UHGV virus genome: UHGV-0187309 | Strand: one strand, 5' to 3' | Source of the DNA: a virus | Length of the DNA stretch: 44,350 nucleotides | Part shown: positions 6,299 to 44,350 of the stretch, in pieces | Layout of the letters: every line of letters starts with the position of its first letter | Numbering within the stretch: position 1 is the first letter of the stretch | Program-made: the position numbers and the translations under genes | Notes under the pieces: model-generated | Told to the model about the DNA's origin: nothing | Database searches by the model: none | The model's input: the letters and a program-made list of their open reading frames with translations, nothing else

Positions 6299-6311
6299 TA
6301 ACGGCATTTTC

Positions 6312-25991: not shown

Positions 25992-26305
25992 GAGCCAGAC
26001 TGAAACCGCCGGGAGATGCTGTCCGCTGCGATGCCTGCGGATGTGCCTTTGTGCCGGAGCCGAAAATGCAGCGTGAGGGAGAGATCGAATACAGCTTCCT
26101 CAACTGTGATTACTGTGGCAAAGCGTATATCGTGTCTGTGACCGATGCCGCACTCCGCCGGAGCATCCGCAAGTACCGGACGCTTGCCGAAAAGCTGAAG
26201 GGCAAGCCGTTGAGTGAAGATACGCTCCGTGAGGTCACGGCGCTGAAGGATGCGAACACAAAAAGAGCCGCAGAGCTGCGGCAGATGTATATTCGGGAGG
26301 GATGA
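25988..26305 (+). CDS. hypothetical zinc-ribbon protein
   Basis: CDACGC...17 aa...CDYCGK. ATGA overlap with nrdG. Confidence 0.6.
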   Translation: MRARLKPPGDAVRCDACGCAFVPEPKMQREGEIEYSFLNCDYCGKAYIVSVTDAALRRSIRKYRTLAEKLKGKPLSEDTLREVTALKDANTKRAAELRQMYIREG

Positions 26306-26306
26306 G

Positions 26307-28350: not shown

Positions 28351-28582
28351 ATGTGCGGTCGTGACCGCTTACACAGAGATTTCTATGCTCAAGGGCGACG
28401 ATCTGAAATATCTGTATGACTATCTTTCCGGCTTTATCGGCAGACCGGTGTATACACACGAGATTTCTGCTGTGGTGATGGCTTACAGAGAGCAGATCAG
28501 GGAGGACTTCCTCGATCTGTGCAGGAACGCAAAGGAGGCGGATGATGGATCAGAAACACTTGACTCTCGGCAGCTTATTTGA
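28337..28582 (+). CDS. hypothetical protein
   Basis: GGGGAGGA RBS. 81 aa. Overlaps both neighbouring MTase genes. Confidence 0.5.
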   Translation: MTKHECAVVTAYTEISMLKGDDLKYLYDYLSGFIGRPVYTHEISAVVMAYREQIREDFLDLCRNAKEADDGSETLDSRQLI

Positions 28583-31145
28583 CGGCTCCGGTGGCTTTCC
28601 GCTTGGCGGCATCCTTGCAGGGATCGAGCCGAAGTGGAGCAGCGAAATTGAACCATTCCCGGTGCTTGTCACGCACAAGCGGCTGCCGCAGGTGAAGCAC
28701 TACGGCGATGTATCCAAACTGAACGGAGCAGAGCTTCCGCCGGTGGATATCATCACCTTCGGCAGCCCGTGTCAGGATCTGTCCATAGCGGGCAAGCGCG
28801 CCGGAATCCATGACGGTGATCGGTCAAACCTGTTCTTTCAGGCGATCCGCATCATCAAAGAAATGAGGGATGCAACAAATGGACGATATCCGCGATACTG
28901 CGTCTGGGAAAATGTCCCCGGCGCTTTCTCATCCAACGGAGGAAACGACTTCAAGGCTGTCCTCGAAGCAGTTATCGGAGTTAAAGAAAAAGGGATCGAG
29001 GTGCCTGCGCCTGAAAATCACAGATGGGCAAAATCAGACGTATATCTGGGAGACGGATGGAGCGTGGCTTACCGAGTTTTCGATGCTCAATACTGGGGTG
29101 TCCCCCAACGCAGAGCAAGAATCTACCTTGTCGCAGATCTTGCTGGTGGAAGTGCCGGAGAAGTATTATTTAAGTCCGAAGGCGTGTCTGGGTATACTCC
29201 GCAGGGCTTCCGTGCGTGGCAAGGAGCTGCCGGAGGTGCTGAAGAAGGCACTGGAGAGACAGGCGGGCGGTCTGACGCTGGAGGTGGAACCCTCTGCCTG
29301 AATACACAGGGCAACAGCGGCGTCGGCATCACCGAGAACAAGGCTCTCGCACTGGTCGCACAGGATCATGGCAATCATCCGGCTGTGCTTCATGCGGTCG
29401 GTATCGACGGCTACAATGCTGCGGTCACCGATGATACGGCAGCAACGCTTGGTGTGAACTGCGGAATGTCCACAGGCAGAAACGGTGTCCTGCAGGCGGC
29501 GGGATTTTCCACAGAACACAGTGCAAAAGCAAGGAGCATCGGCTACGAGGAAGAGGTATCTCCCACACTTCGAGCCGGTGTTGTTCCGGCGGCAATGGAG
29601 TTATATGAAAATCATGGGCAGGACAGCAGATTCAGAGGACCTTTGGATGTAGCACAGCCTGTGACTGCTACCTACGGCATGGGCGGCAACAATCAGCCGC
29701 TTGTGGTAGAGAACAATCCCACGGACGGCAGAGCGAAGATCAATCCCGACGGTGTGTTTCAGACGCTCTGCGGACGAGCCGGAACAGGCGGAAACAACAC
29801 GCCGCTTGTTGCTGAACCGGTCACGCTGAAAATCAGGTCGGGATGTGAGGGCGGTGGCAAGGGTGCTTTATGGCAGACCGACAAGTCTGCTACGCTCGGC
29901 ACAAACAATGACCAGAGTGTATTTGTTCCGTTCGTCAAGGGAACACGTCCGCACTCTGCTGAAGAGGGGCAAACATGGAAACCCGGCGAGGTCGCCAATA
30001 CACTGAATACCTTTGATGTCGGTGAAAGTCGCTGCAATGAACTTGTGGTGGAAGAGCCGCAGATCAGGGCTTTCGGTGTATGCAGCAAGCATTCCAATGC
30101 GATGATGTCCGACAATCCGCACAGCGGATTCTATGAGGCGACCACAAGCAGAACGCTCGACCAAAGTGGTGGAAATTCTGTGACATCGAATCAGGGCGGC
30201 ATCTGCGTGGTAGCACCTGCGCCTGAAACCTTCGATGTGCGTTTCACATCAGACGGTACAAAAAACGCTCGTGGGCATTGCTATCCGACAGACATCTCCC
30301 GATGCCTTGATACGAGCGAGGGATCGCCAGACTCGAATCACGGCGGTGTCGCTGTGGTGGCTCTTGAACCGGGGGCTGCATCACGTGTCGGCGGTCATGT
30401 ATACAGTGACGGCAAAAGCGGTACGCTTCGAGCCAATGCCGGCGATAATCAGCAGGCTGTTGTGGTCGCCGAGCCGGAGACCTATGCTCTGCAAGGCTCG
30501 ATGATCGGTCGTGCCGACAAGAACGGTCCGCAGGGTGATGGCATCAACGAGGATGTGTGCTTTACGCTCAATACATCGGACAGACACGCCATTGCCGCAC
30601 CTGATCCGTCCTTCACAATTTCCCGCGACAACCATTTTGCCGTTTCGGAGGATGTATCCGTTACAGCCGTGGCAAGAGGCCCTGCGGCAGTCGCAGCACC
30701 GGCAGACCACTATTGCACCAGTAAGAATTCGCATCATACGGTCGCCGCCCATGAGCAGGCAAACACGCTGGTCGCTTCCGACTGGAAGGATCCGCCGCTT
30801 GTGAACGACCTTCCGAATGACGAGCCAGTATATATCGTTCGCCGCTTGACTCCGGTTGAGTGCGCCAGATTGCAGGGATTCCCTGACTGGTGGTGTGCCG
30901 ACCTTGCAATTACTGATCCTTCCGATGAGGAGATCGCCTTCTGGACGGAGGTCTGGGAGACATGGCGGCAGGTCACAAATCCCAAGGGCAAGCCGAAAAC
31001 GGAAAAGCAGATCCGCAAATGGCTGGCTGATCCGTACACGGATTCAGCGGAGTACAAGCTGTGGGGCAACGGTGTCTCAGAGCCGGTCGTATACTTCGTG
31101 CTTTCCGGCATCGCATGGGCAGCGCAGAGAGATACACAAAAGTGA
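28542..31145 (+). CDS. dcm: DNA (cytosine-5)-methyltransferase with ~570-aa repetitive variable (TRD) region
   Basis: Motif I LFDGSGGF, IV FGSPCQDLS, VI CVWENVPG, VIII QRRARIYLV, IX RRLTPVECARLQGFP, X LWGNGVSEPV. About 1.7 kb lies between motifs VIII and IX. Confidence 0.9.
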   Translation: MMDQKHLTLGSLFDGSGGFPLGGILAGIEPKWSSEIEPFPVLVTHKRLPQVKHYGDVSKLNGAELPPVDIITFGSPCQDLSIAGKRAGIHDGDRSNLFFQAIRIIKEMRDATNGRYPRYCVWENVPGAFSSNGGNDFKAVLEAVIGVKEKGIEVPAPENHRWAKSDVYLGDGWSVAYRVFDAQYWGVPQRRARIYLVADLAGGSAGEVLFKSEGVSGYTPQGFRAWQGAAGGAEEGTGETGGRSDAGGGTLCLNTQGNSGVGITENKALALVAQDHGNHPAVLHAVGIDGYNAAVTDDTAATLGVNCGMSTGRNGVLQAAGFSTEHSAKARSIGYEEEVSPTLRAGVVPAAMELYENHGQDSRFRGPLDVAQPVTATYGMGGNNQPLVVENNPTDGRAKINPDGVFQTLCGRAGTGGNNTPLVAEPVTLKIRSGCEGGGKGALWQTDKSATLGTNNDQSVFVPFVKGTRPHSAEEGQTWKPGEVANTLNTFDVGESRCNELVVEEPQIRAFGVCSKHSNAMMSDNPHSGFYEATTSRTLDQSGGNSVTSNQGGICVVAPAPETFDVRFTSDGTKNARGHCYPTDISRCLDTSEGSPDSNHGGVAVVALEPGAASRVGGHVYSDGKSGTLRANAGDNQQAVVVAEPETYALQGSMIGRADKNGPQGDGINEDVCFTLNTSDRHAIAAPDPSFTISRDNHFAVSEDVSVTAVARGPAAVAAPADHYCTSKNSHHTVAAHEQANTLVASDWKDPPLVNDLPNDEPVYIVRRLTPVECARLQGFPDWWCADLAITDPSDEEIAFWTEVWETWRQVTNPKGKPKTEKQIRKWLADPYTDSAEYKLWGNGVSEPVVYFVLSGIAWAAQRDTQK

Positions 31146-31222
31146 ACGCATAACGTGCCCGTTTTGAAACGATGAAACGAAAACTCCCGAATCTGCGTTA
31201 CTTTGATTTCGCAAAGATACAC

Positions 31223-31405
31223 TCATTCAGATTTCTTGTCTCCGCCAAGCTCGATCTTTCCGTGCTTTTCCTCATATTTTTCAATGCAGTCACGGATCAG
31301 GATCAGAACCTGACTGTTGGCAGAACGACCTTCGTAATCGGCAACAACGTGAAGTTTATCAAGCATCTCCTGTTCGATACGGATGGATACACTTTTAATA
31401 GCCAT
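31223..31405 (-). CDS. ribbon-helix-helix (CopG/Arc-like) DNA-binding protein
   Basis: 60 aa. MAIKSVSIRIEQEMLDKLHVVADYEGRSANSQVLILIRDCIEKY fits a beta-alpha-alpha RHH. AAAGGAAG RBS. The only minus-strand gene between 4.4 and 44.3 kb. Confidence 0.72.
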   Translation of the reverse strand: MAIKSVSIRIEQEMLDKLHVVADYEGRSANSQVLILIRDCIEKYEEKHGKIELGGDKKSE

Positions 31406-31518
31406 AAAACAACTTCCTTTCAGATATATTATGACTTTATTTTAGACCTGTTTTGTGGTATAATGTTTGAAATGGATATAAAGTGTATCTAAAATATATC
31501 TATAAGAAGTTGTACGAT

Positions 31519-31857
31519 ATGAAAATAGCAATTATTGGCTCACGGGGACTTCATGTGAATGACCTTGAACGGTATCTTCCGGAAGATGTCACAGAAATCG
31601 TCAGCGGAGGAGCAAGGGGCATTGATTCGGATGCGCGGGCATACGCACAGGCACACGGCATTCCGCTGAAGGAGTTTCTGCCGGATTATGAACGCTTCGG
31701 CAGGAGCGCCCCGCTGAAACGGAATCTTGAGATCATCGCTTATGCCGATGTGGTGCTTGCATTCTGGGACGGACAGTCACGCGGCACGAAATATGTGATA
31801 GACCATTGCCGGGAACAGCACGTTCCGGTCAGGGTTTTCGCACCGAGAAAGAAATAG
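31519..31857 (+). CDS. SLOG-superfamily protein (DUF2493 / YpsA-DprA-like Rossmann fold)
   Basis: MKIAIIGSRG...VSGGARGIDSDARAYA...VLAFWDGQSRGTKYVI. Preceded by the extended -10 TGgTATAAT (hexamer 31459..31464). Confidence 0.7.
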   Translation: MKIAIIGSRGLHVNDLERYLPEDVTEIVSGGARGIDSDARAYAQAHGIPLKEFLPDYERFGRSAPLKRNLEIIAYADVVLAFWDGQSRGTKYVIDHCREQHVPVRVFAPRKK

Positions 31858-31863
31858 TAATAA

Positions 31864-31936
31864 AGAAGCCATGCAGCAAATTGTGAACATTCTGATACTA
31901 AATCAGATGTTCTGCCGCAGGGCTTCTTTCTATTCT
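31864..31936 (+). terminator. long near-perfect hairpin + T-rich tail after the SLOG gene
   Basis: AAGAAGCC (31864..31871) / GGCTTCTT (31921..31928) closing inner GAACATTCTGAT/ATCAGATGTTC pairs; followed by TCTATTCT. Confidence 0.4.
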
Positions 31937-31992
31937 GTACTATGCACAATCTAAAGGGCAGACACGCCCCGTACATTCTCCGTTTTACAGTC

Positions 31993-32021
31993 TTGCATTC
32001 CGGGGCAAAAGACGGTAATAT
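31993..32021 (+). promoter_or_regulatory. cassette promoter P1
   Basis: TTGCAT 31993..31998, 17 nt, TAATAT 32016..32021. ATG at 32090. Confidence 0.55.
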
Positions 32022-32089
32022 GTGACTACGAAAACGCCGCAGCCCAACGCACAAGGCTGAGGGGCGGCAGTAAAAACGGAGGTAATCAT

Positions 32090-32998
32090 ATGGAAATCAA
32101 GTTCAATATTGAAAAGAGCCAGCGCAAGGCACTGGCACAGAAAATCGGCGAGCTGACAGGAGCAGAGGTCAAGTACCTCGGTGTACCGGGCTGCAGATAC
32201 CAGATCGACTTCTTCACCCTGGACAAAAACGCAGTCCTCAGTTTCAGCGACCGCATCGACACAGATATCGTGGAGAAGGTACTGAATGGGCTTGCAGAGG
32301 CAGGATATGAAAGCAAAACAGTAGCACCGCCGGAAGAAACGGATGCTTCGGCTGAATCAGAGCCGGATATCCCTGACGAACCGAGCAGCGGATTTCCGCT
32401 GCTCGCAAGCATCAGCTTCCCGATTGCAGAGCACACGGTGCAGAGCCTTACAAACCTTATCTGCATGATCCACTCCCGCGGCGCACTTCTCAGCAAGGCG
32501 ACCGGCGGACAGTTCTTCGCAGACAAGAGCCTCGCCGATGCGATCCTCGATGACAAGACCTTCCGCAGCATCCACGAGCTTATCGCCTACATCAGAGTAT
32601 GGGAGGAAACGAATCCCGAACTGAAGGGCATCCGTTTCGCCGATGACAAGCTGATCTTTGACGGCTTCGGTGCAGCGCAGGATGCCGAAACGGTGCAGAC
32701 CTTCACCAAGCTCGCCACAGCCATGAACAGGATGGCGATCACGCAGAAACGTGTGCAGGCAAAGGATGTCGATGACAGCAACGAAAAGTACGCACTCCGC
32801 ATCTGGCTGATCCGCCTTGGGCTGAACGGCGCAGACTGCAAGGTTGACCGCAAGCGCCTCATGGCTCCGCTTTCCGGACACACCGCATTCCGCAACGATG
32901 CGGAGCGTGTGCGCTGGGAGGCAAAGCAAAAGGCAAAGCGTGATGCTGCCAGAACCGAACTGACCGAGGAGGATGAAAACGATGCAGTTTCCGAATGA
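32090..32998 (+). CDS. hypothetical protein (C-terminal module shared with the amidoligase)
   Basis: 302 aa, GGAGG RBS. Acidic linker. C-terminal EKYALRIWLIRLGLNGADCKVDRKRLMAPLSGHTAFRN. Confidence 0.75.
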   Translation: MEIKFNIEKSQRKALAQKIGELTGAEVKYLGVPGCRYQIDFFTLDKNAVLSFSDRIDTDIVEKVLNGLAEAGYESKTVAPPEETDASAESEPDIPDEPSSGFPLLASISFPIAEHTVQSLTNLICMIHSRGALLSKATGGQFFADKSLADAILDDKTFRSIHELIAYIRVWEETNPELKGIRFADDKLIFDGFGAAQDAETVQTFTKLATAMNRMAITQKRVQAKDVDDSNEKYALRIWLIRLGLNGADCKVDRKRLMAPLSGHTAFRNDAERVRWEAKQKAKRDAARTELTEEDENDAVSE

Positions 32999-33230
32999 AA
33001 GACAGCTCAGAGCCTTGCGGGAGCGTTATCCCGCAGGCACCCGCATCCGACTGAAGCATATGGATGACCCTTATGCACCCGTACCGCCCGGCACGGTCGG
33101 CGAGGTTCAGATGGTTGATGACGGCGGCAACATACACATGGTCTGGGAGAATGGCAGAACGCTCTCCCTTATAGACGGTGTCGATGATTTCCAGGTCATT
33201 TCTGACCGCAATGGGGGCTCCGGAAAATAA
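32982..33230 (+). CDS. DUF4314-like protein
   Basis: YPAGTRIRLKHMDDPYAPVPPGTVGEVQMVDDGGNIHMVWENGRTLSLIDGVDDF. Second ATG chosen (GAGGAGG 9 nt upstream). Confidence 0.68.
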   Translation: MQFPNERQLRALRERYPAGTRIRLKHMDDPYAPVPPGTVGEVQMVDDGGNIHMVWENGRTLSLIDGVDDFQVISDRNGGSGK

Positions 33231-33343
33231 GAGATCCTATTCCATTGTATCCGAGTATACCATAGAATTTCAAGTATATCAAGTGTACACATACACCAGA
33301 TATGAGCAATGTATTTTCCTCGATATTCTGTGGTTTTAGCGGC

Positions 33344-33372
33344 TTGCTATATCCTCCGAAAGACGGTAATAT
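33344..33372 (+). promoter_or_regulatory. cassette promoter P2
   Basis: TTGCTA 33344..33349, 17 nt, TAATAT 33367..33372. Conserved leader to ATG 33428. Confidence 0.55.
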
Positions 33373-33427
33373 GTGACACAACGGAAGGGCAAACGCCCAC
33401 CGAAAAACCGAATCGGAGGATACCAAA

Positions 33428-34372
33428 ATGACTGAGAAAACCGCACAGCAGATCAACAGAATGAAGGAGCAGACCATCGGGGTTGAGATCGAGATGAACA
33501 ACATCACCCGCAAGGCTGCCGCAAAGCTCGCCGCCGACTTCTTCGGCACGAACCGCTACGAGGACACGGCCTGCCGCAACGGCTACGAAACCTACAGTGC
33601 TTGGGACGCACAGGGACGCGAGTGGAAATTCCAGAAGGACGTCAGCATCGCAGGCCCCGACAGCGAAAAGTGCGAACTGGTCACACCGATCCTGCACTAC
33701 GCAGACATCGAAACCCTGCAGGAGCTTGTGAGAAGGCTCAGAAAGGCAGGAGCGCGCAGTGATTACACGCGGGGATGTGGAGTCCACTGCCACATTGGAG
33801 CCCAGGGACACACACCGCAGAGCCTCAGAAACCTCGCAAACCTTATGGCAAGCCACGAAACCCTGATCGCCGAGGCAATCAGAGTAGACCAGAGCAGAAT
33901 GCACCGCTACTGCAGAACAGTTGACCCGAGATTCCTTGAACAGCTCAACCGCAAAAAGCCCACCACGATGGCACAGCTTGCGGACATCTGGTACGGCGCA
34001 CAGGGCTGCGAATACGGCAGAACCCACCACTACAACGACAGCCGCTATCACATGCTCAACCTCCACGCTACCTTCACCAAAGGCACGGTCGAGTTCAGAC
34101 TTTTCCAGTTCGCACCGCCTTCCAACGGCAAGCAGAACGGGCTCCACGCAGGCAAGCTCAAGAGCTACATTCAGCTCTGCCTCGCAATGAGCCAGATGGC
34201 AAAGGACCTGCGGAGCGCCAGCCCCAAGGAACAGCAGAAGGAAAACAAAAAGTTCGCCATGCGGACTTGGCTGATGAGAATGGGATTCATCGGGGATGAA
34301 TTCGCAACGGCGAGAGAGGTCCTCACTGAGAACCTTACGGGCGACAACAGCTTCCGCTTCGGCAGATCTTAA
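33428..34372 (+). CDS. putative amidoligase (Amidoligase_2, glutamine-synthetase-like fold)
   Basis: QTIGVEIEMNNITR...GREWKFQKDVSI...CELVTPIL...GCGVHCHIG...TVEFRLFQ. Pattern recalled from the Amidoligase_2 family. Confidence 0.75.
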   Translation: MTEKTAQQINRMKEQTIGVEIEMNNITRKAAAKLAADFFGTNRYEDTACRNGYETYSAWDAQGREWKFQKDVSIAGPDSEKCELVTPILHYADIETLQELVRRLRKAGARSDYTRGCGVHCHIGAQGHTPQSLRNLANLMASHETLIAEAIRVDQSRMHRYCRTVDPRFLEQLNRKKPTTMAQLADIWYGAQGCEYGRTHHYNDSRYHMLNLHATFTKGTVEFRLFQFAPPSNGKQNGLHAGKLKSYIQLCLAMSQMAKDLRSASPKEQQKENKKFAMRTWLMRMGFIGDEFATAREVLTENLTGDNSFRFGRS

Positions 34373-34637
34373 AGGCCTGCCCTTCGGGGCGGAAGAACAA
34401 GCGGAACGGCACGGCGGCGCACACAGCCGCCACGGTCTCGGCTCTCGCCTCGGTCGGTGCTTCTGCTTCGCAGAGGTTGCCACTGGCAACCCGCACCCCC
34501 GTGTGTGGCGGAAAGGGTATCCTCCGAATCGGTATCCCATCTCAGTCAACCGCGCCACACAGCGCAAATGTAGGCAAGGCATAAAATGCACAACATACGG
34601 CACAGAATCGCCCTCGATGATCTGTTCATTTACCCGC

Positions 34638-34666
34638 TTGATAATGCCGCCGAAATGAGTTAACAT
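34638..34666 (+). promoter_or_regulatory. cassette promoter P3
   Basis: TTGATA 34638..34643, 17 nt, TAACAT 34661..34666. Confidence 0.45.
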
Positions 34667-34705
34667 AGCACTACCGCAAGGAAAAAACGCAAAGGAGAAC
34701 ATAGC

Positions 34706-35173
34706 ATGAACAAGAAAAAATACTACATAGCCTACGGCAGCAACCTCAACATCCGCCAGATGCGATTCCGCTGCTCAGGCGCAAAGCCCATCGGCATTTC
34801 CGCGATTCCTGACTACGAACTGCTCTTCAAGGGCAGCAAGACGGGAGCGTACCTCACCATCGAGCCGAAGGACGGCGGGCTTGTTCCGGTCGCCGTGTGG
34901 GAAGTGACAGCCGACGATGAGAAGCACCTCGACATCTACGAGGGCTACCCGAACTTCTACTACAAGAAGGAAGTCCGCCTGCCAATCAGGCTGGCAAACG
35001 GCAAGACCAAAAAGGTCACGGCATTTGTCTACATCATGCACGAGGAGCGTGAGATTGCGATCCCGTCAATGACCTACATCCGCACCTGCGAGGAAGGCTA
35101 CCGCAACTTCGGCTTCGACACCAAGTTCCTTGATGCCGCCTACGAGATCAGCGCAAAGGAGGTACAGCGATGA
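34706..35173 (+). CDS. gamma-glutamylcyclotransferase (GGCT/AIG2-like)
   Basis: YYIAYGSNLNIRQMRFRC...LVPVAVWEVTADDEKHLDIYEGYPNFYYK. Confidence 0.82.
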   Translation: MNKKKYYIAYGSNLNIRQMRFRCSGAKPIGISAIPDYELLFKGSKTGAYLTIEPKDGGLVPVAVWEVTADDEKHLDIYEGYPNFYYKKEVRLPIRLANGKTKKVTAFVYIMHEEREIAIPSMTYIRTCEEGYRNFGFDTKFLDAAYEISAKEVQR

Positions 35174-35370
35174 AAGACCGCAACAAAGAGCCGCACATCT
35201 GCCCGAAATGCGGGCAGGCGTACACCGCCCGACCAGCTCTTTCCCGCGTGGATAACAGCCCAATCTGCCCCGACTGCGGAACGCGTGAAGCGCTTGAAAG
35301 CATCGGCGTCGGACGCGAGGAACAGGACAAGATTCTCGGCATCATCCACGAGAAGTACGAAGGCGAATAA
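35170..35370 (+). CDS. small zinc-ribbon protein
   Basis: CPKCG...16 aa...CPDCG. ATGA overlap with the GGCT gene. Confidence 0.6.
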   Translation: MKDRNKEPHICPKCGQAYTARPALSRVDNSPICPDCGTREALESIGVGREEQDKILGIIHEKYEGE

Positions 35371-35378
35371 GTCGGCAC

Positions 35379-35400
35379 AAAGGGGCGTTACAGCCCCTTT
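35379..35400 (+). terminator. GC-rich stem-loop without U-tract (terminator or RNA stabiliser)
   Basis: AAAGGGGC gttaca GCCCCTTT. Confidence 0.3.
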
Positions 35401-35527
35401 CCGCATTCTCAGGGATAACTTATCCCCCACTTTCCGGGCGTGACACGGCGCGTTCTGGCGCAAACTATGTACCTGTTCAGCTTGCTGAAAACGGCGATTC
35501 TTCTACGATTTATTTTGCACATAGGCG

Positions 35528-35556
35528 TGGACTTTTCAGGCAAAAGGCGGTAGTAT
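35528..35556 (+). promoter_or_regulatory. cassette promoter P4
   Basis: TGGACT 35528..35533, 17 nt, TAGTAT 35551..35556. Confidence 0.5.
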
Positions 35557-35613
35557 GTGACACAACGGAAGGGCAGACAGCCCACCGGAATTCATAACAT
35601 GGAGGATACGAAC

Positions 35614-36084
35614 ATGAACGACAGCTACTTTGAGGAGATGACCTTCCAGTGCGCCGCCTATGAACGCGCCAAAAAGGAGCGCGCCGAGCGCAAGGCTCAG
35701 ATTGCCGAAGCCCACGGCTACGACAGCCCGGAGGTGGACGCTTGGTACGCTGAGGAGAAGGCGGCAGGTCCTTACCCCTACAGCGGCAATGAGATGAAAG
35801 CCTACTGGGTGTACAAGATGCGCCGCGAGAACGACGGTGACGAGTTCGAGATGAGCGATTACTGCTGGGACAAGGAATTCCACGATTTCATCGAAACGCT
35901 CCGCAAGCTAGGCATCACCGAGTTCACGATCACCAATCAGAGCACGGCGCTGATGGAGAACATCTACGGATTTATTGCAGAAGGCTGCACGATGGTCGGA
36001 ACGCACACCATCACCAAGAAGAGCCTGCGCTGGGGCGAGGAAGAATACGAAACGGCACAGGGCATCCTTTTCAAGGTGAACTGA
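35614..36084 (+). CDS. hypothetical protein
   Basis: Start at the ATG preceded by GGAGGATACGAAC, the same RBS spacing as the other cassettes. 156 aa. Confidence 0.65.
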   Translation: MNDSYFEEMTFQCAAYERAKKERAERKAQIAEAHGYDSPEVDAWYAEEKAAGPYPYSGNEMKAYWVYKMRRENDGDEFEMSDYCWDKEFHDFIETLRKLGITEFTITNQSTALMENIYGFIAEGCTMVGTHTITKKSLRWGEEEYETAQGILFKVN

Positions 36085-36092
36085 TATCGACA

Positions 36093-36116
36093 GGAGCAGG
36101 GCTTCGGCTCTGCTCC
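36093..36116 (+). terminator. 10-bp stem with TTCG loop, no U-tract
   Basis: GGAGCAGGGC ttcg GCTCTGCTCC. The 21-nt core GCAGGGCTTCGGCTCTGCTCC recurs at 38541..38561. Confidence 0.3.
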
Positions 36117-36201
36117 CCTCCCCCTTTTCCTCATGTGTAAATCCTACAATACGAAAGGCTGAGATCGGCGATTCTTCTACGTTTTATTTTGCACATAGGC
36201 G

Positions 36202-36230
36202 TGGACTTATCAGCAGGATCATGGTAATAT
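36202..36230 (+). promoter_or_regulatory. cassette promoter P5
   Basis: TGGACT 36202..36207, 17 nt, TAATAT 36225..36230. Confidence 0.55.
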
Positions 36231-36285
36231 GTGACACAACGGAAGGGCAGAACGCCTACCGAAAAACGAAACGGAGGATAACACC

Positions 36286-36606
36286 ATGAACCCCTACACA
36301 CTGAGAAAGAGCCTGAACCTGATTGATGCCAACACGGCGATCACCCGCGAGGACTTCGAGAGCCTCTTCTGCAAGACTGCAGAGCGTGTCACCTTTACCT
36401 TCAACGGTTGGGACGGCAAGAGCTATGATGGCGAGAGGCGCAGCGGTTACGTTTACCGCACCATCATCGAGGGCTACGAGAATGTGAGATTCGTTAAGGT
36501 CGGCAAGGGACTGCATTACATCGATGAGGACAGCAGCATTACCGAGAAGGCTACGGGCATCGCCCACAAGGAAGCAGAGTGGCTGGTCGATGTGAAGAGA
36601 GCATAA
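36286..36606 (+). CDS. hypothetical protein
   Basis: 106 aa, CGGAGGATA RBS. Confidence 0.65.
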   Translation: MNPYTLRKSLNLIDANTAITREDFESLFCKTAERVTFTFNGWDGKSYDGERRSGYVYRTIIEGYENVRFVKVGKGLHYIDEDSSITEKATGIAHKEAEWLVDVKRA

Positions 36607-36672
36607 GCAAAACAGCGGAGCCCTTCCTGCGGGGAGGGCTTACCGCAGAAAAAAACATGGAGGTTTACGAAC

Positions 36673-37056
36673 ATGAGTACGAATTCAAGAGTCGGAATTC
36701 TGCATCAGGACGGCGTCACGGAGACAATCTACTGCCATTGGGACGGCTACCCCGAACACCAGATGCCCATCCTCACCGAGCATTATAACACCGCCGAGAA
36801 GGTCAAGGCACTGCTTGCCCTTGGAGACATCAGCATCCTCGGCGAGCGCCTTGCTCCCGATGCGGATGAGCCGCACAGCTTTGAAAAGCCTGCCGATGGT
36901 GTGACGGTTGCTTACCACCGCGACCGCAAAGAGCCGATGCAGCCTGCGGTCACCCACAAGAGCGTTGTTTCCCTGATGAGCGATGACTGGGGCATTCCGT
37001 ATTACTACCTTTTCGATGAGGAAAAAGGAGCATGGCTTCCGCCGACCGAGGACTGA
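36673..37056 (+). CDS. hypothetical protein
   Basis: 127 aa, GGAGG RBS 9 nt upstream. Probably co-transcribed with 36286..36606. Confidence 0.65.
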   Translation: MSTNSRVGILHQDGVTETIYCHWDGYPEHQMPILTEHYNTAEKVKALLALGDISILGERLAPDADEPHSFEKPADGVTVAYHRDRKEPMQPAVTHKSVVSLMSDDWGIPYYYLFDEEKGAWLPPTED

Positions 37057-37236
37057 TAGGTTCAGCCCTGCGGGGCTGACTTGCCCCACGTTGTCCTTTG
37101 TGCGGTTTTCCTGCGATAAGCTTGCCCCTGCGGAAAGCCGCCTCACACGGCGCGTTTGTGTGCCTCCTGTGGGCTTGGTGCTATGTATACAACAAATGGC
37201 GCAGATACGCCGATTTTGTTCTGAACATTTAGCCGC

Positions 37237-37265
37237 TTGCTATTCCGGAAAGATCATGGTAATAT
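37237..37265 (+). promoter_or_regulatory. cassette promoter P6
   Basis: TTGCTA 37237..37242, 17 nt, TAATAT 37260..37265. Confidence 0.55.
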
Positions 37266-37321
37266 GCTACACAACGGAAGGGCAAACGCCCACCGAATAC
37301 AAAACACGGAGGTAAACCACC

Positions 37322-37687
37322 ATGACAAAGAAGGAAATGAAAGCCGCAGTTGCCAAGCTGAAGATGCTGCAGAACGGCAAAGCCGCCCTTGAGGGAATGA
37401 CCGAAGCGGACTGCCTTGAGCTTTTCGGGATCAGCAGAGCGCAGGCACTTGCAAACACAAACGCCGCCCTTGCCAAAACCGAGCAGGAGATTTTCAGAGC
37501 CGAGCATCCGCTGACAGGCATCGACAAACAGCTCTTCGAGATCGCAGCAAAGCACCTGATCACGGTGCAGGAGCGCGGAGACCTTGAAGCCCGCCACTGC
37601 GACAGCGAGGACTTCATCGAGGGTTCGGTCTGGGGGCTGGAAGCCGCCCTCAAGGATGCCTACGAGGCAGGACGCAAGAGCAAGTAA
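37322..37687 (+). CDS. hypothetical protein
   Basis: 121 aa, CGGAGGTAA RBS. Confidence 0.65.
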   Translation: MTKKEMKAAVAKLKMLQNGKAALEGMTEADCLELFGISRAQALANTNAALAKTEQEIFRAEHPLTGIDKQLFEIAAKHLITVQERGDLEARHCDSEDFIEGSVWGLEAALKDAYEAGRKSK

Positions 37688-37749
37688 CCAAACGGAACAG
37701 CGCAGCCCTTCCGCAGGGAGGGGCTGCCAATCCCGAAGGAGGAAAGAAC

Positions 37750-37929
37750 ATGGATACATACGCACAGCTTGAAATGCTGACCGCAGTCATCGCAAACCTG
37801 TCGGCCACGGGAACATGGACGGAGCGAGAAGTGATGGAAACGCTGCTGGATGTCTTTGAACCGAAGGAGCTTGAACAGCTCGGCTACGGCGACTGCGTGA
37901 ACGCATACTTGGAAGAGTACGGCGGATAG
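37750..37929 (+). CDS. small hypothetical protein (59 aa; below the ORF-track cutoff)
   Basis: Own translation: MDTYAQLEMLTAVIANLSATGTWTEREVMETLLDVFEPKELEQLGYGDCVNAYLEEYGG. GGAGGA RBS 7 nt upstream. Confidence 0.5.
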   Translation: MDTYAQLEMLTAVIANLSATGTWTEREVMETLLDVFEPKELEQLGYGDCVNAYLEEYGG

Positions 37930-38099
37930 CGACGACACACGCACCACGTTGCCTCGTGTGGGGCGGTGCCGGGGAGATGCGTACAGCTTGCCCCTGCGAA
38001 AAGCCGCCTTACACGGCGCGTTCTGGCGCGTCCTATACGATGTACAATTCCGCCCGACTTCCCGCCTCATGTTTGTCACATTTATTTTGCAGACAGACG

Positions 38100-38128
38100 T
38101 GGACTTTTCTGCGAAAAGACGGTAATAT
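38100..38128 (+). promoter_or_regulatory. cassette promoter P7
   Basis: TGGACT 38100..38105, 17 nt, TAATAT 38123..38128. Confidence 0.55.
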
Positions 38129-38175
38129 GTGACTACCGCAAGAGAAGCGGAATCAATCAAAAGGAGCGAATCTAC

Positions 38176-38529
38176 ATGAAAATTCTGGTATGCGAACCCG
38201 GCAAGCACCCCTACGTCAAGGACATCGAGTCGGGGCTGGAGAACCTTCAGCACGAGGTGGACGGACTGATTCAGGCCCTCTACCCATTTTCCGAAGAGGC
38301 GGCTGTTGTGTGCAACGAAGAAGGGCTGTTCCGCGATGACCTCGAATGGAACAGAACGGTCGATCCCTATGGTCCGATCAAGGGAACATTCTTCATTTGT
38401 GGGCTCGGCTTTGAAGATTTTACAGGACTGACCGATGAACAGATCGAAAAGTACACTAAGCTCTTCTGGCCTCCTGAGCTTTTCATCCCGACACCGAACG
38501 GCATGGTGGTGCTTCACATTGTGGAATGA
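38176..38529 (+). CDS. DUF3846-like protein
   Basis: MKILVCEPGKHPYVKDIESGLENLQHEVDGLIQALYPFSEEAAVVCNEEGLF...GTFFICG. Confidence 0.72.
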   Translation: MKILVCEPGKHPYVKDIESGLENLQHEVDGLIQALYPFSEEAAVVCNEEGLFRDDLEWNRTVDPYGPIKGTFFICGLGFEDFTGLTDEQIEKYTKLFWPPELFIPTPNGMVVLHIVE

Positions 38530-38632
38530 CCGCAACAGGGGCAGGGCTTCGGCTCTGCTCCGCACTATTCCCCGGTCATAATGTACACAACTGAACGCCG
38601 AAAAATGCAGAAATGATCGTGATTACTCACGC

Positions 38633-38661
38633 TTGATAATGTAGGCAAGAAGAGTTATACT
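38633..38661 (+). promoter_or_regulatory. cassette promoter P8
   Basis: TTGATA 38633..38638, 17 nt, TATACT 38656..38661. Confidence 0.5.
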
Positions 38662-38718
38662 GTGTACAACGGAAGGGCGGAAAGCCCAGCCGAAAACGAA
38701 AATGCGGAGGTACACACC

Positions 38719-38898
38719 ATGAAAACGAAGCAGGAACTGATCGAGAAGGCAAAGAAAGAGTGGGGCGAGACTTGGAACGAGGGCATGATCGAGTACGATG
38801 CCGAGTACAACGAGTACATCGTCTGGGTAGGCAAGCCGGACATCTACAAAGCCTTCTTCGATGCCGACACCCTCAGATGCATTGGCACGAAGTGCTGA
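38719..38898 (+). CDS. small hypothetical protein (59 aa)
   Basis: CGGAGGTAC RBS. MKTKQELIEKAKKEWGETWNEG... Confidence 0.55.
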   Translation: MKTKQELIEKAKKEWGETWNEGMIEYDAEYNEYIVWVGKPDIYKAFFDADTLRCIGTKC

Positions 38899-38953
38899 GA
38901 ACAACCGCCGCCCTTCGGGGCGGCACAACACCAATACTAAGGAGGACATTTAC

Positions 38954-39226
38954 ATGAGCGAGAACACAGAAAAGCGCGATGCAGCCGAAGAACTAGAACT
39001 TACCGATGCACAGGCAGACCGCAACGATGACATCTACGAGGCAGCTTTTGAATTCTGCAAGGTGCTGACCGAGAACCCCGACCTCGAATGGGACATGGCG
39101 TTCCTCGGTGAGATCGCCGACCTTGCCGCTGGCATCATGACCGAGCAGGGACACAAGGTGCGGTTCCCCAGTGTGGTCACCGAGCAGGACGGCACGCAGT
39201 ACATTGAAGAATACTACGGCGGCTGA
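38954..39226 (+). CDS. hypothetical acidic protein
   Basis: AAGGAGGA RBS. 90 aa. Confidence 0.6.
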   Translation: MSENTEKRDAAEELELTDAQADRNDDIYEAAFEFCKVLTENPDLEWDMAFLGEIADLAAGIMTEQGHKVRFPSVVTEQDGTQYIEEYYGG

Positions 39227-39427
39227 TCGGCAAAACGGAGCAGTCCTTCTGCGGAGGGGCTGTTCCACGCCACGTTCGCTTGTGTGGGGGGCTTACGGCT
39301 TTCTGCGGATATCTTGCCCCGCGATAAAAGCCGCCCACACGGCGCATTTGTGTGCCTCCTGTGGCAAGGCATAATATGTACAACAACCGACAAAAAATCG
39401 CCTTGCACATTCTGGTAGTTTAGCCGC

Positions 39428-39456
39428 TTGATATATCTGCCGAAAAGAGTTATAGT
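39428..39456 (+). promoter_or_regulatory. cassette promoter P9
   Basis: TTGATA 39428..39433, 17 nt, TATAGT 39451..39456. Confidence 0.5.
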
Positions 39457-39512
39457 GTGTACAACGGAACGGGAAACCGAGCCGAAAACTACGAAAGAAC
39501 GAGGTAAACACT

Positions 39513-39749
39513 ATGTGGCACGAAGGCACGATTCTGGCACCGACCAAGGAAGGCAAGACGGTGGTTCACTACTGGGCAAAGGTCTACGACGAGGGCAGCC
39601 AGTACGGCATCAACGAGGGCAGAATCAGTAAACTGACACTCAAGGAGAATGGCAAGGTCATCTACAACTATGACAGAGGCGAGGATGTACCCGAGCAGAA
39701 CGAGGCTGCGGAGATTGCCCTTGCGATCCTGATGTACGAGTACAAGTAA
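39513..39749 (+). CDS. hypothetical protein
   Basis: 78 aa. RBS-like CGAGGTAA 7 nt upstream. Confidence 0.6.
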   Translation: MWHEGTILAPTKEGKTVVHYWAKVYDEGSQYGINEGRISKLTLKENGKVIYNYDRGEDVPEQNEAAEIALAILMYEYK

Positions 39750-39837
39750 ATAGAACGGTCGGTAGGCGGTAGCATTAAGCCGCCCATCCAAACCAAGACG
39801 GACACACATATAAATTCAAGGTGGATATACATAGGAG

Positions 39838-39866
39838 AGGCTTGCAGCACGCAGGCCTTTTCTTTA
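39838..39866 (+). terminator. rho-independent terminator immediately upstream of terS
   Basis: AGGCTTGC agcac GCAGGCCT (one G.U pair) followed by TTTTCTTT. Confidence 0.5.
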
Positions 39867-39897
39867 TGCAGATTTTTTGAGAAAAGGAGTGATGCGG

Positions 39898-40371
39898 ATG
39901 GCTCAGAGAGGCAGAAAACCGACGCCGACAGCAATCAAGGAACTGGAAGGCAATCCCGGAAAACGACCGCTGAATGATGCAGAGCCGAAGCCGGAACGCA
40001 AGGCACCGCCCTGTCCGAAGTGGCTGGAGCCCGAAGCAAAAAAGGAATGGCGCAGGCTGTCAAAGCAACTGGAGCAGATTGGTGTGCTGACCGAGGTCGA
40101 TCAGGCGGCATTCGCATCCTACTGTCAGGCATACGCACGATGGAAAGAAGCCGAGGAATTCATGACCCAGCACGGCACGATCGTAAAAACAAAATCAGGT
40201 TACTGGCAGCAGGTTCCGCAGGTATCCATTGCGCAAACTTATCTGAAGATCATGAACAAGATCGCAGAGCAGTTTGGCCTGACCCCGGCGGCAAGAAGCC
40301 GTATCACTGCCGGCGCAGATATGAAAAACGCTGCCGTTGACGATATGGATGAACTTCTCGGAGGTGGCTGA
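39898..40371 (+). CDS. terS: terminase small subunit (P27 family)
   Basis: MAQRGRKPTPTAIKELEGNPGKRPLN...PKWLEPEAKKEWRRL...FGLTPAARSRI. AAGGAGTG RBS. Confidence 0.85.
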   Translation: MAQRGRKPTPTAIKELEGNPGKRPLNDAEPKPERKAPPCPKWLEPEAKKEWRRLSKQLEQIGVLTEVDQAAFASYCQAYARWKEAEEFMTQHGTIVKTKSGYWQQVPQVSIAQTYLKIMNKIAEQFGLTPAARSRITAGADMKNAAVDDMDELLGGG

Positions 40372-43037: not shown

Positions 43038-43052
43038 CAGGAGGTAATGTTT

Positions 43053-44350
43053 ATGAGCTTTTTAAGCTGGCTCGGCATCAGCAAGCCGAGAGATGCGCCG
43101 ATGCTGCCTGATATTCAGGACAATGTCCGTGATTCTGGAAATCTGTTCGTATTCGGCATGACGCACAGCGGTGAACGTGTCGATGAGCGCACGGCGATGC
43201 AGATCGTGACTGTTTACGCCTGTGTTCGACTGCTCTCCAACACCATCGCAGGACTGCCGCTGCACCTATACAGATACACCGGCAAAGGCGATGATAAGGA
43301 ATTAGCCATTGACCATCCGCTGTACAAAATACTCTATCGGCAGCCGAATCCCGAAATGAGTTCATTCTCGTTCTGGGAAGCACTGATGTGCCACCTTTTA
43401 CTATGGGGCAACGCCTATGCACAGATTGTCCGGGACGGCAAAAACGGCATCCTCGGTCTCTATCCCCTGCTTCCCGAAAATGTCGAGATCGACCGTGATC
43501 CGAAATCCGGCGACCTGATCTACACTTACCACGCCTACACCGACGAAAAGCCCGGTGAGCATGACAAGGATATTATCTTCCGCAGGGATGAAATCTTACA
43601 CATCCCCGGTCTGGGATTCAATGGACTGGTCGGTTTCTCACCGATAGCGATGATGAAAAATGCACTCGGTGCGGTCATGGCAGTAGAGCGATACGGCAGC
43701 GCCTTCTTCAAAAACGGAGCGCAGCCTGCCGGAGTTCTCGAACATCCGGGCGTGCTGAAGGATCCGCAGAAGATCCGCGACAACTGGACAAAGGCATACG
43801 GCGGCGCACGGAACGCACACCGCATCGCAGTCCTCGAAGAAGGTATGCAGTATAAGCCAATCTCCCTGCCGCCGGAGGATTCGCAGTTTCTGTCCACAAG
43901 AGAATTCGATGTGGAGGAAATCTGCCGGATGTTTCAGGTTCCGCCGCATCTGGTACAAGACCTCAAACGCAGTACCTTCAATAACATCGAGCATCAGGGT
44001 ATTGCATTTGTGCAGTATTCTCTTATGCCGTGGATCATTCGCATCGAAAAGGGCATCATGAAAGACCTTCTTCTGGAGGAAGAACAGAATGTATATTTCC
44101 CGAAATTCAATGTGGACGGTCTGATGCGCGGCGACTACCAGAGCCGAATGAACGCCTACGCTATCGGTGTCGGCAACGGCTTTATGTCGCCCAATGATGT
44201 GCGCCGTCTTGAAAATATGGACTTGATCCCTGACGATCAGGGCGGCAACGACTACTACCTGAACGGCTCGTATAACAAGCTGGAGGATGCAGGTGCGGCA
44301 TATGCTCTGAATCAGCCGCAGGAACAGCCGGATACCGAGGAACAGGATGA
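43053..44350 (+). CDS. portal protein (HK97 family), C-terminally truncated by the window edge
   Basis: Own translation from ATG 43053 (AGGAGGTAA RBS): MSFLSWLGISKPRDAP...TAMQIVTVYACVRLLSNTIAGLPLHLY...LLLWGNAYAQIVRDGKNGILGLYPL...FFKNGAQPAGVLEHPG... Open to the last base. Confidence 0.9.
   Translation, partial: MSFLSWLGISKPRDAPMLPDIQDNVRDSGNLFVFGMTHSGERVDERTAMQIVTVYACVRLLSNTIAGLPLHLYRYTGKGDDKELAIDHPLYKILYRQPNPEMSSFSFWEALMCHLLLWGNAYAQIVRDGKNGILGLYPLLPENVEIDRDPKSGDLIYTYHAYTDEKPGEHDKDIIFRRDEILHIPGLGFNGLVGFSPIAMMKNALGAVMAVERYGSAFFKNGAQPAGVLEHPGVLKDPQKIRDNWTKAYGGARNAHRIAVLEEGMQYKPISLPPEDSQFLSTREFDVEEICRMFQVPPHLVQDLKRSTFNNIEHQGIAFVQYSLMPWIIRIEKGIMKDLLLEEEQNVYFPKFNVDGLMRGDYQSRMNAYAIGVGNGFMSPNDVRRLENMDLIPDDQGGNDYYLNGSYNKLEDAGAAYALNQPQEQPDTEEQD

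Follow-up and report, generated by a model that had tools for sequence, protein, structure and literature searches.

The region between about 31.9 and 39.8 kb of the virus genome UHGV-0187309 (44,350 nucleotides (nt), here called the window) raises the question of why closely similar non-coding sequences recur in front of one small gene after another, shortly before the terminase genes. A first-pass annotation of this DNA had proposed that nine homologous cassettes of promoter, leader, short open reading frames (ORFs) and stem-loop form an array there, and had likened them to the promoter-early stem-loop (PeSL) cassettes of T4-type phages (Arbiol et al. 2010, PMC2839356; Comeau et al. 2014, PMC4122927). 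The data presented here suggest that the array is probably a hyperplastic accessory-gene region built from portable expression cassettes, and the best-supported reading is that a PeSL-like system arose independently in a temperate lineage of Gram-positive gut phages. The resemblance to PeSLs, in architecture and in a role in shuffling genes, was supported as an analogy, without membership in the PeSL family.

The order within a unit is a GC-rich hairpin without a U-tract, often a further module called S, an AT-rich stretch with a promoter-like sequence, a hairpin-led 5′ untranslated region (UTR), a Shine-Dalgarno site, and one or two cargo ORFs. The nine sites proposed as promoters, each with a −35-like hexamer, a spacer of exactly 17 nt and a −10-like hexamer, were all found where they had been placed, and they are listed here with the genes behind them (aa, amino acids).

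P1, 31993-32021, plus strand: TTGCAT-17-TAATAT, then GTGACTAC; upstream of a 302-aa amidoligase-related ORF (32090-32998) and DUF4314 (32973-33230)
P2, 33344-33372, plus strand: TTGCTA-17-TAATAT; predicted to drive Amidoligase_2 (33428-34372)
P3, 34638-34666, plus strand: TTGATA-17-TAACAT; predicted to drive GGACT (34706-35173) and a zinc-ribbon ORF (35170-35370)
P4, 35528-35556, plus strand: TGGACT-17-TAGTAT, of the GGCGTGGACTT type; predicted to drive DUF7698 (35614-36084)
P5, 36202-36230, plus strand: TGGACT-17-TAATAT, with TG at the extended −10 position; predicted to drive a 106-aa ORF (36286-36606) and a 127-aa ORF (36673-37056)
P6, 37237-37265, plus strand: TTGCTA-17-TAATAT; predicted to drive DUF6900 (37322-37687) and a 59-aa ORF (37750-37929)
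P7, 38100-38128, plus strand: TGGACT-17-TAATAT, then GTGACTAC; predicted to drive DUF3846 (38176-38529)
P8, 38633-38661, plus strand: TTGATA-17-TATACT; predicted to drive a 59-aa ORF (38719-38898) and a 90-aa ORF (38954-39226)
P9, 39428-39456, plus strand: TTGATA-17-TATAGT; predicted to drive DUF7678 (39513-39749), the final array gene in most relatives

An ATG preceded by a Shine-Dalgarno sequence is located 39-68 nt downstream of each of these sites. The two families of −35 context that had been described were also real, with (G/C)C(C/G)GCTTG(A/C)TA in P2, P3, P6, P8 and P9, and G(G/A)CGTGGACTT in P4, P5 and P7, while P1 belongs to neither; the reported homologies farther upstream match the repeat families D3, D4, D5 and D9. 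The resulting consensus resembles a sigma-A promoter (TTGMTA or TGGACT, 17 nt, (G)GTAATATGTGAC). Conservation extends from about −60, through TTCTGTACATTTAGCCGCTTG(A/C)TA or ATTTATTTTGCACATAGGCGTGGACTT, to a strongly kept, non-consensus −10 region, GGTAATATG, in which the conserved sequence of the cassette promoters is GGTAATATGTGAC; the stretches upstream are AT-rich, for example ATTTATTTTGCA and ACATTTAG. The proposed unit scheme of promoter, leader, one to three small ORFs and stem-loop held overall, although two of the ORFs are long (302 and 314 aa).

The significance of these sites lies in the extended sequence that the copies share and in its conservation elsewhere. When the 44-kb window was searched with extended motifs, GGTAATATGTGACAC with up to three mismatches gave seven matches against 0.72 expected (six of the seven in the array), and ACAACGGAAGGGC with up to two mismatches gave six against 0.87 expected (all six in the array), which means that all matches but one were located there. 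A chance or artefactual origin of the cassettes was ruled out by their conservation in 56 independent loci. The 20-mer ATGTGACACAACGGAAGGGC, which spans the −10 flank and the 5′ arm of the leader hairpin, was found in 49 stretches from IMG/VR, often several times in each, and in seven stretches from metagenome-assembled genomes of rumen and gut Clostridia (Oscillospiraceae, Ruminococcus and others). A profile of the promoter and leader together recovered 276 copies in 49 viral loci and the window, with 1-11 copies per locus, nearly all on the gene strand; two of the 50 loci contained one opposite-strand match each.

The gene maps of the relatives showed that the placement of the array is constant, between the methylase and SLOG genes on one side and terS on the other, with both flanks collinear. 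No locus contained a cassette downstream of terS, none of those that include the methylase and SLOG genes contained one upstream of them, and none of the gene maps had a cassette ahead of a structural gene. Within these limits the length of an array is 5-11 kb, with about 4 to more than 10 cassettes detected, and the recurrent cargo families of all arrays number about 37, at 10-17 genes per array. Gene order is mostly collinear, but not fixed: the family f19 was found at three positions and DUF7698 at several. In the complete genome of the more distant Acutalibacteraceae phage NatCom_991 (PV036413.1; loci L058 and L059) the sequence TGGATA-17-TAATATGTGACTAC occurs just twice in 36.8 kb (record positions 25777 and 26772), and both copies precede operons at the syntenic amidoligase/GGACT accessory region before terL. 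Because NatCom_991 holds two copies, both of them syntenic, the promoter class is older than the expansion of the array and specific to this region of the genome, and the two-promoter state looks like a minimal, perhaps ancestral, array. Searches of plasmids gave no match to cassette DNA.

Relatives of the window also provided the evidence that cargo is exchanged. The expectation of the first-pass annotation that ORFs would be swapped at cassette borders was borne out, as the array is hyperplastic, the crossovers fall inside repeated modules, and promoters are paired anew with genes. Five loci (L009, L018, L023, L025 and L036) differ from the window by a 1.25-1.33-kb indel that contains DUF3846, two small ORFs and two promoters. 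In L009 the joint is a hybrid of two intergenic regions (IG), its left side being identical to IG7 and its right side to IG9, and the switch lies in the ACACGGCGC that their S modules share. In L010, L040 and L045 an unrelated 164-aa gene stands in place of everything between DUF7698 and the 90-aa ORF, both included; on the left the junction lies in the 3′ arm of the P4 leader hairpin, on the right within S. When all loci whose flanks are at least 93% identical were compared with one another, five distinct indels emerged, two of which cross over in the promoter or leader (31 and 78 nt of shared sequence) and two in S (41-42 nt), while the fifth is illegitimate. Additionally, f11, u106, u127, DUF7678 and u90 were each found behind two or three promoter subtypes. 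The direct orientation of the repeated non-coding modules makes them substrates of homologous recombination, and the comparison with relatives shows that cargo is deleted, inserted or replaced, and promoters are re-paired, at the cassette borders. The illegitimate deletion, present in L005 (3596-3921) and in L029, joins the S module of IG6 through TGC to the interior of the 59-aa ORF and leaves a truncated remnant.

The second conserved part of the cassette is a two-tier hairpin in the 5′ leader, which begins 9-10 nt past the −10 hexamer, and hence within about 4 nt of the predicted 5′ end, and which is followed by a strong Shine-Dalgarno site. Its layout is ACAA-CGG-AA-GGGC-loop-GCCC-N-CCG-AAAA...GGAGG, with an outer stem of CGG/CCG, an inner stem of the GGGC/GCCC type, a purine-rich loop, and an A-rich spacer before the GGAGG Shine-Dalgarno sequence. 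The hairpin was found behind six of the nine promoters.

33375-33409, plus strand: P2 leader hairpin, CGG-AA-GGGC-AAAC-GCCC-A-CCG
35559-35594, plus strand: P4 leader hairpin, the 3′ arm of which is the left junction of the L010 gene replacement
36233-36268, plus strand: P5 leader hairpin
37266-37302, plus strand: P6 leader hairpin
38662-38699, plus strand: P8 leader hairpin, GGGC-GGAAA-GCCC
39457-39491, plus strand: P9 leader hairpin, with the variant inner stem CGG-GAAA-CCG

The leaders of P1 and P7 are of another kind (GTGACTAC...) and also open with a hairpin (CCGC-AAGAGAA-GCGG in P7), while the P3 leader is without the conserved hairpin. Because an alignment of 59 leaders with MAFFT, evaluated with RNAalifold, gave no structure, the variable loops having misaligned the stems, folding of each sequence separately and a covariance model were used instead. 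All 76 distinct leaders adopted the same two-tier fold, with a mean minimum free energy of −10.3 kcal/mol compared to −3.3 kcal/mol in shuffled sequences, and 98-99% of the stem cells in the covariance-model alignments were paired. The 5′ arm ACAACGGAAGGG is nearly invariant, while the loops vary from 3 to 8 nt (86% purine), the internal loop varies as well, and alternative inner stems (CGG/CCG, GGC/GCC or GGCGG/CCGCC) occupy the same position. The combination of invariant stems with variable loops, a variable internal loop and alternative inner stems suggests selection on RNA structure. Compensatory covariation was given up as a line of support, since the stems are almost invariant in the covariance-model alignments; a looser search gave three changes on both sides of a pair, which perhaps come from weak matches.

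The third element is the hairpin behind the ORFs, which is GC-rich and located 5-15 nt past the stop codon. The nine stem-loops that had been listed all exist, eight of them strong and the one at 34376 weaker, and none has a U-tract. The eight strong hairpins have folding energies of −15 to −25 kcal/mol and z scores of −3.5 to −5.5 relative to shuffled sequences.

35373-35403, plus strand: hairpin after the zinc-ribbon ORF, −16.1 kcal/mol, z −3.5, no U-tract
36093-36116, plus strand: hairpin after DUF7698, UUCG loop, −18.7 kcal/mol, z −5.5
36615-36646, plus strand: intercistronic hairpin with no promoter behind it, −23.3 kcal/mol, z −4.8
37057-37083, plus strand: hairpin after the 127-aa ORF, −15.4 kcal/mol, z −4.1
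37694-37733, plus strand: intercistronic hairpin, −24.7 kcal/mol, z −4.8
38538-38561, plus strand: hairpin after DUF3846, UUCG loop, −17.8 kcal/mol, z −4.8; a near-copy of the hairpin at 36093 (repeat family D13)
38907-38924, plus strand: intercistronic hairpin, UUCG loop, −15.4 kcal/mol, z −4.7
39229-39271, plus strand: hairpin after the 90-aa ORF, −25.4 kcal/mol, z −4.8

Only the delimited hairpins were significant, as whole intergenic regions folded with z scores of just −0.7 to −1.7. The view that each stem-loop closes a unit was correct in part, because three of the hairpins are intercistronic and no strong hairpin follows DUF4314. Four of the hairpins have a C(UUCG)G loop, which is a stable motif specific to RNA. 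As the phage has canonical terminators with U-tracts elsewhere (for example at 6313-6340), the post-ORF hairpins appear to be a different kind of signal. Without a U-tract they are unlikely to be efficient terminators, and their sequence argues for attenuation or RNA stability instead. Comparison to Rfam gave no match at the gathering threshold in the window, and in the array two chance-level matches at E values up to 5.

The fourth element, S, is a module of about 120 nt, which is present in IG6, IG7 and IG9, while IG3 and IG4 contain partial copies or variants of it. Its parts are GCGCCACGTTCGCC, an imperfect hairpin of 62 nt (range 60-64 nt) built on the base YYGTGT/ACACRG, another, smaller hairpin, and a −10-like box with ATGTACAAC behind it.

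37083-37199, plus strand: S copy 1, with the long hairpin, the small hairpin B and a relic −10/ATGTATACAAC box
37941-38062, plus strand: S copy 2, the crossover partner of copy 3 in the 1.25-1.33-kb indel
39267-39390, plus strand: S copy 3
31942, 34586, 37183, 38040, 38581 and 39376: upstream −10-like boxes, with degenerate forms seen by eye in the other three regions
31935-31975, plus strand: relic cassette in IG1, read directly, with the −10-like TACTAT, GCACAATC and a leader-like hairpin, GGGC-AGACAC-GCCC

The core of S folded into one long hairpin in all 54 distinct copies (mean z −3.3). RNAalifold on 40 copies recovered only the 6-bp base stem, as one and the same 3′ arm can pair with different 5′ arms, in two registers, and the upper helix defies a single consensus. 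The base stem is 95% paired, with one covarying pair (C-G, U-G or U-A) and many U-G pairs on the plus strand. A reading of S as a single-stranded-DNA promoter of the Frpo type was rejected, because the stem contains no −35 and −10 boxes and the phage delivers double-stranded DNA. A regular-expression search found a second −10-like box with ATG(T/C)ACAA about 80-90 nt upstream of the main −10 in the six long intergenic regions listed above. In S the box is followed by ACAACAACCGACAAAA, which reads like a leader minus its hairpin. These upstream boxes may be relics of promoter-leader cassettes that have lost their genes, or alternatively, they could be tandem promoters.

In the mechanism proposed for the cassettes, host RNA polymerase with sigma-A would initiate at each promoter, each cargo gene would be expressed autonomously whatever its neighbours, and the hairpins in the 5′ leader and behind the ORFs would act on the RNA, in end protection, attenuation or processing, rather than in efficient termination. 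Several observations weigh against the array being an assembly of portable expression cassettes of this kind. The nine sites match the sigma-70 consensus at 8-10 of 12 positions, and most of them score just 8 of 12. A generic sigma-70 scan of 30000-44350 showed no enrichment (10 sites versus 9.9 expected) and passed only P3, P8 and P9, so the hexamers alone are not significant. The conserved non-consensus −10 region (TAATATGTGAC) is confined to one region of the genome, which suggests recognition more specific than by the housekeeping sigma factor alone. In the main class of leaders, no pair was changed on both sides among 65 distinct sequences. The S hairpin is equally stable on either strand, and it is compatible with a role in either RNA or DNA. 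One of the five indels is illegitimate, with 3 nt of microhomology. Finally, cassette DNA was not uniformly better conserved than coding DNA, a mixed result.

The two boundaries of the array are listed here.

31909-31933, plus strand: left boundary after the SLOG gene, a terminator-like hairpin with a T-rich tail (GTTCTGCCGCAGGGC and TTCTTTCTAT)
39839-39865, plus strand: right boundary, a canonical hairpin with a U-tract (GGCTTGCAGCACGCAGGCC TTTTCTTT), about 35 nt before the Shine-Dalgarno site of terS

Upstream of terS (39830-39897 of the window) an invariant ATACATAG precedes a U-tract hairpin, the stem of which shows compensatory changes. Of the 18 distinct sequences found at this position in the relatives (L001-L049), 17 keep the element, while the exception, L011, has another hairpin with a U-tract. 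This element looks like a conserved terminator or attenuator, or a part of a late-promoter or antitermination device or of the pac/cos region. The array had been described as lying directly upstream of the terminase genes; the position is right, but the conserved U-tract terminator intervenes and the array does not drive terS. Because this terminator separates the two, the array would be insulated from the late operon unless the terminator is overridden. Judged by the canonical U-tract terminators at its ends, the array is insulated from the replication genes as well as from terS and the late operon.

To understand what the cassettes carry, the array ORFs were compared to protein family collections. 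Searches of Pfam identified DUF4314, Amidoligase_2, GGACT, a zinc ribbon, DUF7698, DUF6900, DUF3846 and DUF7678, while five array ORFs had no Pfam family match. The 302-aa ORF matches an amidoligase family of PHROGs, but not the Pfam Amidoligase_2 family, which identifies it as an amidoligase-related paralogue; the other PHROGs matches of the cargo were to uncharacterised families. The 302-aa ORF (32090-32998) and the 314-aa Amidoligase_2 ORF (33428-34372) form tandem units and have a common C-terminal motif, WL(I/M)R(L/M)G. In relatives GGACT is also duplicated. The extra cargo families of the relatives added only DUF4313 and DUF6809, and PDB contained no sequence relative of the four cargo proteins that were searched. 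Neither PADLOC nor the named NCBIfam families matched any array cargo; the sole PADLOC match, a weak one to PsyrA (E 9e-6), was the SLOG gene that flanks the array upstream. The median isoelectric point of the cargo proteins is 5.1, compared to 5.4 for the other phage proteins, which does not discriminate them as DNA mimics. On a megaplasmid of Vescimonas fastidiosa, a member of the Oscillospiraceae (L057, NZ_AP023416.1, 627426-629198) a homologue of DUF3846 is contained in a 590-aa ORF annotated as ArdA, in a region of conjugative type with a relaxase, MobC, topoisomerase III and a transposon-transfer-assisting protein, and with SLOG nearby. This is the sole pointer to counter-defence, and putative anti-defence cargo in the array is weakly supported by it; the location of the array beside three methylases and a S-adenosylmethionine (SAM) synthetase is compatible with counter-defence and is no proof of it. 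It is reasonable to expect that the array would be injected first, provided that this is a cos phage which packages rightward from terS.

The gene content identifies the window as a temperate phage or prophage, which by its sequence is a Heliusvirales-like temperate siphophage of rumen or gut Oscillospiraceae. The gene order on the right side of the window is methylases, SLOG, array, terS (39898-40371) and terL (40371-43037).

3065-3955, minus strand: CI/LexA-type repressor
6842-7669: sigma-70/extracytoplasmic function (ECF)-superfamily protein, with region 4 alone detected
31483-31857: SLOG protein, upstream flank of the array

The ORF at 6842-7669 also weakly matches models of a "positive control sigma-like factor", and is a candidate late-gene activator. 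The replication module contains a DUF2800 nuclease, a single-stranded-DNA-binding protein of the Enc34 type, a family-A polymerase, DUF932, an SNF2 helicase, a MazF-like gene and a D5-type primase, and it is accompanied by genes for nucleotide metabolism and modification (SAM synthetase, NrdD/NrdG and three DNA methylases, the latter at 26250-31145). The PemK/MazF-like toxin gene (17130-17648) lies inside the replication module and overlaps the start of the D5-type primase gene. As called, about 180 nt are common to the ParB_N-N6/N4 methylase ORF (26250-27578) and the methylase ORF that comes after it (27400-28350). On the lysogeny side, genes for an SOS-response-associated peptidase (SRAP) and a thymidine kinase (1852-3059, minus strand) adjoin the CI/LexA-like repressor. 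The TerL of the window is 888 aa long and contains an insertion of about 355 aa (residues ~98-452) with a LAGLIDADG_3 domain, which is missing from the TerL of NatCom_991 (521 aa) and is probably an intein or a homing-endonuclease insertion. Outside of the insertion TerL is 63-68% identical to that of NatCom_991, which belongs to Ca. Heliusvirales. Heliusvirales are gut phages, among the most widespread ones in humans and animals, and are defined by the markers TerL, portal, capsid, protease, PolA, helicase and nuclease, and their description mentions neither promoters nor the array region (PMC11283538).

The presence of the repressor bears on the first of the alternative explanations, that the cassettes are morons, which the repressed prophage would express to benefit the lysogen, rather than genes of early lytic growth or of anti-defence. 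We consider this a tentative possibility. It would agree with the sigma-A-like promoters that the units have of their own, with the U-tract terminators on both sides of the region, with the presence or absence of units between otherwise collinear relatives, and with the GC content of the array, which at 54.6% slightly exceeds the 51.4% of the remaining window. On the other hand, all units are oriented as the lytic genes are, and PADLOC detected nothing among the array cargo, its one weak match being the flanking gene. The DUF3846 homologue in the ArdA-annotated ORF with SLOG nearby, and the neighbouring methylases and SAM synthetase, also point to counter-defence instead.

That a dedicated regulator binds the conserved sites and makes the whole array one switchable regulon seems unlikely, although several features would fit it. 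In one version a phage protein would bind the RNA of the leader hairpin, as lambda N binds boxB, for antitermination through the downstream hairpins and the terminator near terS, or for translational control. The nearly invariant 5′ arm of the leader, the resemblance of its short purine-rich loops (AGACA, GAAA, GGAAA) to loops of the boxB type, the hairpins after every unit, which could be conditional terminators, and the conserved terminator ahead of terS are consistent with such a protein. However, no boxA-like element was seen, and since a promoter precedes each operon, the cargo does not require antitermination to be expressed. In the other version a repressor would bind the DNA around −10/+1 (TGTGACACA, TGTACA), in the manner of mycobacteriophage stoperators or of the Aca operators at anti-CRISPR promoters. 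A further argument for a regulator is that GGTAATATGTGAC(A/T)AC departs from the consensus and is yet kept across phages with only 63% TerL identity, in the accessory region only. A dimeric operator in double-stranded DNA across the inverted repeat is disfavoured, because the loop length varies (3-8 nt), as does the internal loop. By eye, no operators shared with the lysis-lysogeny switch region were seen in 3940-4380 or 6290-6860, and among the array proteins no RNA-binding or helix-turn-helix protein was identified. The narrower proposal, that the leader hairpin (ACAACGG-AA-GGGC / purine loop / GCCC-CCG) is a putative RNA site through which a phage or host protein coordinates all accessory genes, is decidedly doubtful. 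If it were true, a leader-binding protein would exist that is similar to the N/boxB system or acts on a translational operator, possibly with read-through of the conserved terminator into terS and the late operon, and Gram-positive gut phages would have a multi-copy nut-like system carried on recombining cassettes.

It is very unlikely that the promoters are a phage-specific temporal class, read by the sigma-like protein of the phage itself (ORF 6842-7669) and not by host sigma-A. The window does encode such a protein, with its weak matches to positive control factors, and the cassette promoters differ from the consensus early promoter at ~4130-4165. Their hexamers and 17-nt spacing are, however, of the housekeeping and not of the ECF type. 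Furthermore, positive control factors of prophages usually drive the late operon, while a different sequence, ATACATAG with its hairpin, lies upstream of terS and no structural gene is preceded by a cassette. Least probable is an integron-like system, in which the S hairpins, and perhaps the leader hairpins, would be structure-specific sites of a dedicated recombinase: S is indeed an imperfect hairpin of 60-64 nt that is conserved at its base and variable in its centre, folds equally well on both strands and lies at cassette borders with crossovers, but the crossovers are dispersed (S base, S middle, promoter, leader) within 31-78 nt of shared sequence, as homologous recombination predicts, the annotation of the array ORFs gave no recombinase gene in or beside the array, and the cassettes carry promoters, unlike those of integrons.

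The reading of the array as a region of recombining expression cassettes has several consequences. Gene regulation and accessory genes in phages of the Heliusvirales type have so far been essentially undescribed, and the array shows where these phages keep and exchange variable cargo, about 37 small families, almost all of them uncharacterised. The 20-mer and the profile, which recover more than 270 cassettes, provide a sequence handle for such cargo in metagenomes, and the cassettes are ready portable parts, with a predicted promoter and 5′ UTR, for genetically intractable Oscillospiraceae. If the cargo consists of counter-defence or host-takeover genes, the array would be a natural discovery library. 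The idea behind PeSLs, that regulatory DNA is also a recombination substrate, would be extended to temperate phages of Gram-positive anaerobes.

The array was compared with several known systems. As to the anti-defence islands in the leading regions of conjugative elements, the Vescimonas relaxase/MobC region contains the DUF3846 homologue within the ArdA-annotated ORF and has SLOG nearby; the cassette DNA is absent from plasmids and contains nothing like a single-stranded-DNA promoter. Integron attC sites are similar in being imperfect hairpins of about 60 nt at the borders of gene cassettes, but here there is no integrase, the cassettes bear promoters, and the crossovers are dispersed in homologous tracts. 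The lambda nut/boxB sites are similar in the short GC stem and the purine-rich loop of 4-5 nt past the promoter and upstream of hairpin signals; they differ in that here no boxA was seen and no N-like protein was identified, and in that the sites accompany individual promoters, which makes at least six in a genome rather than two.

There are likenesses also to the 5′-terminal stem-loops that stabilise Firmicute mRNAs. A hairpin near the start of the transcript is the geometry of these stabilisers, which are known from the ermC, aprE and SP82 leaders and protect from RNases J1 and Y. The leaders of the array are also predicted to have a stable hairpin a few nucleotides from the 5′ end, followed by a strong Shine-Dalgarno site. 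The near-invariant 5′ arm, which is a difference, suggests more than a generic structural role for the leader hairpin, which is here a putative stabiliser. Morons, reportedly described by Juhala and colleagues in 2000, are said to be autonomous promoter-gene units located between conserved genes of lambdoid and other temperate phages. The array is likewise made of units with a predicted promoter and gene that are variably present among relatives; promoter-like sites and presence/absence polymorphism were both found, while the individual units are without canonical terminators. A moron is usually a lone insertion, unrelated to others and equipped with a terminator, whereas here at least nine units with homologous regulatory DNA form one array.

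The host-takeover module of phage SPO1 comprises 26 small early genes in a 12.4-kb terminal region (PMC6873191, citing Stewart et al. 1998). It resembles the array in that small genes of a Gram-positive phage are densely packed into several short operons, each of which has, in SPO1, strong promoters and ribosome-binding sites. SPO1 differs in being a virulent phage, with a module located in the terminal redundancy for which early timing and host shut-off functions have been demonstrated, while the array is known from its sequence; the account of SPO1 does not present its promoters as homologous cassettes that recombine.

The PeSLs of T4-type phages are the nearest analogue. In both systems a GC-rich stem-loop, an AT-rich stretch and a promoter of the housekeeping-sigma type (predicted here) are repeated between genes, the region is hyperplastic and contains small, mostly orphan genes, and the indels and replacements between close relatives cross over inside the elements (here in four of five events). 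The two are without sequence homology, and the motifs of the array are unrelated to T4 early promoters. PeSLs occur in virulent T4-like myoviruses, while the array belongs to a temperate siphophage of Gram-positive anaerobes, is present once per genome at a fixed place before terS, and has in addition the conserved 5′ leader hairpin and often the 120-nt S module. Terminator activity and encapsidated mini-circles, which form by recombination of adjacent elements, were demonstrated for PeSLs, while the stem-loops of the array have no U-tracts and some of them are intercistronic. Together, these likenesses and differences suggest that hyperplastic regions are built by convergent evolution along a general route.

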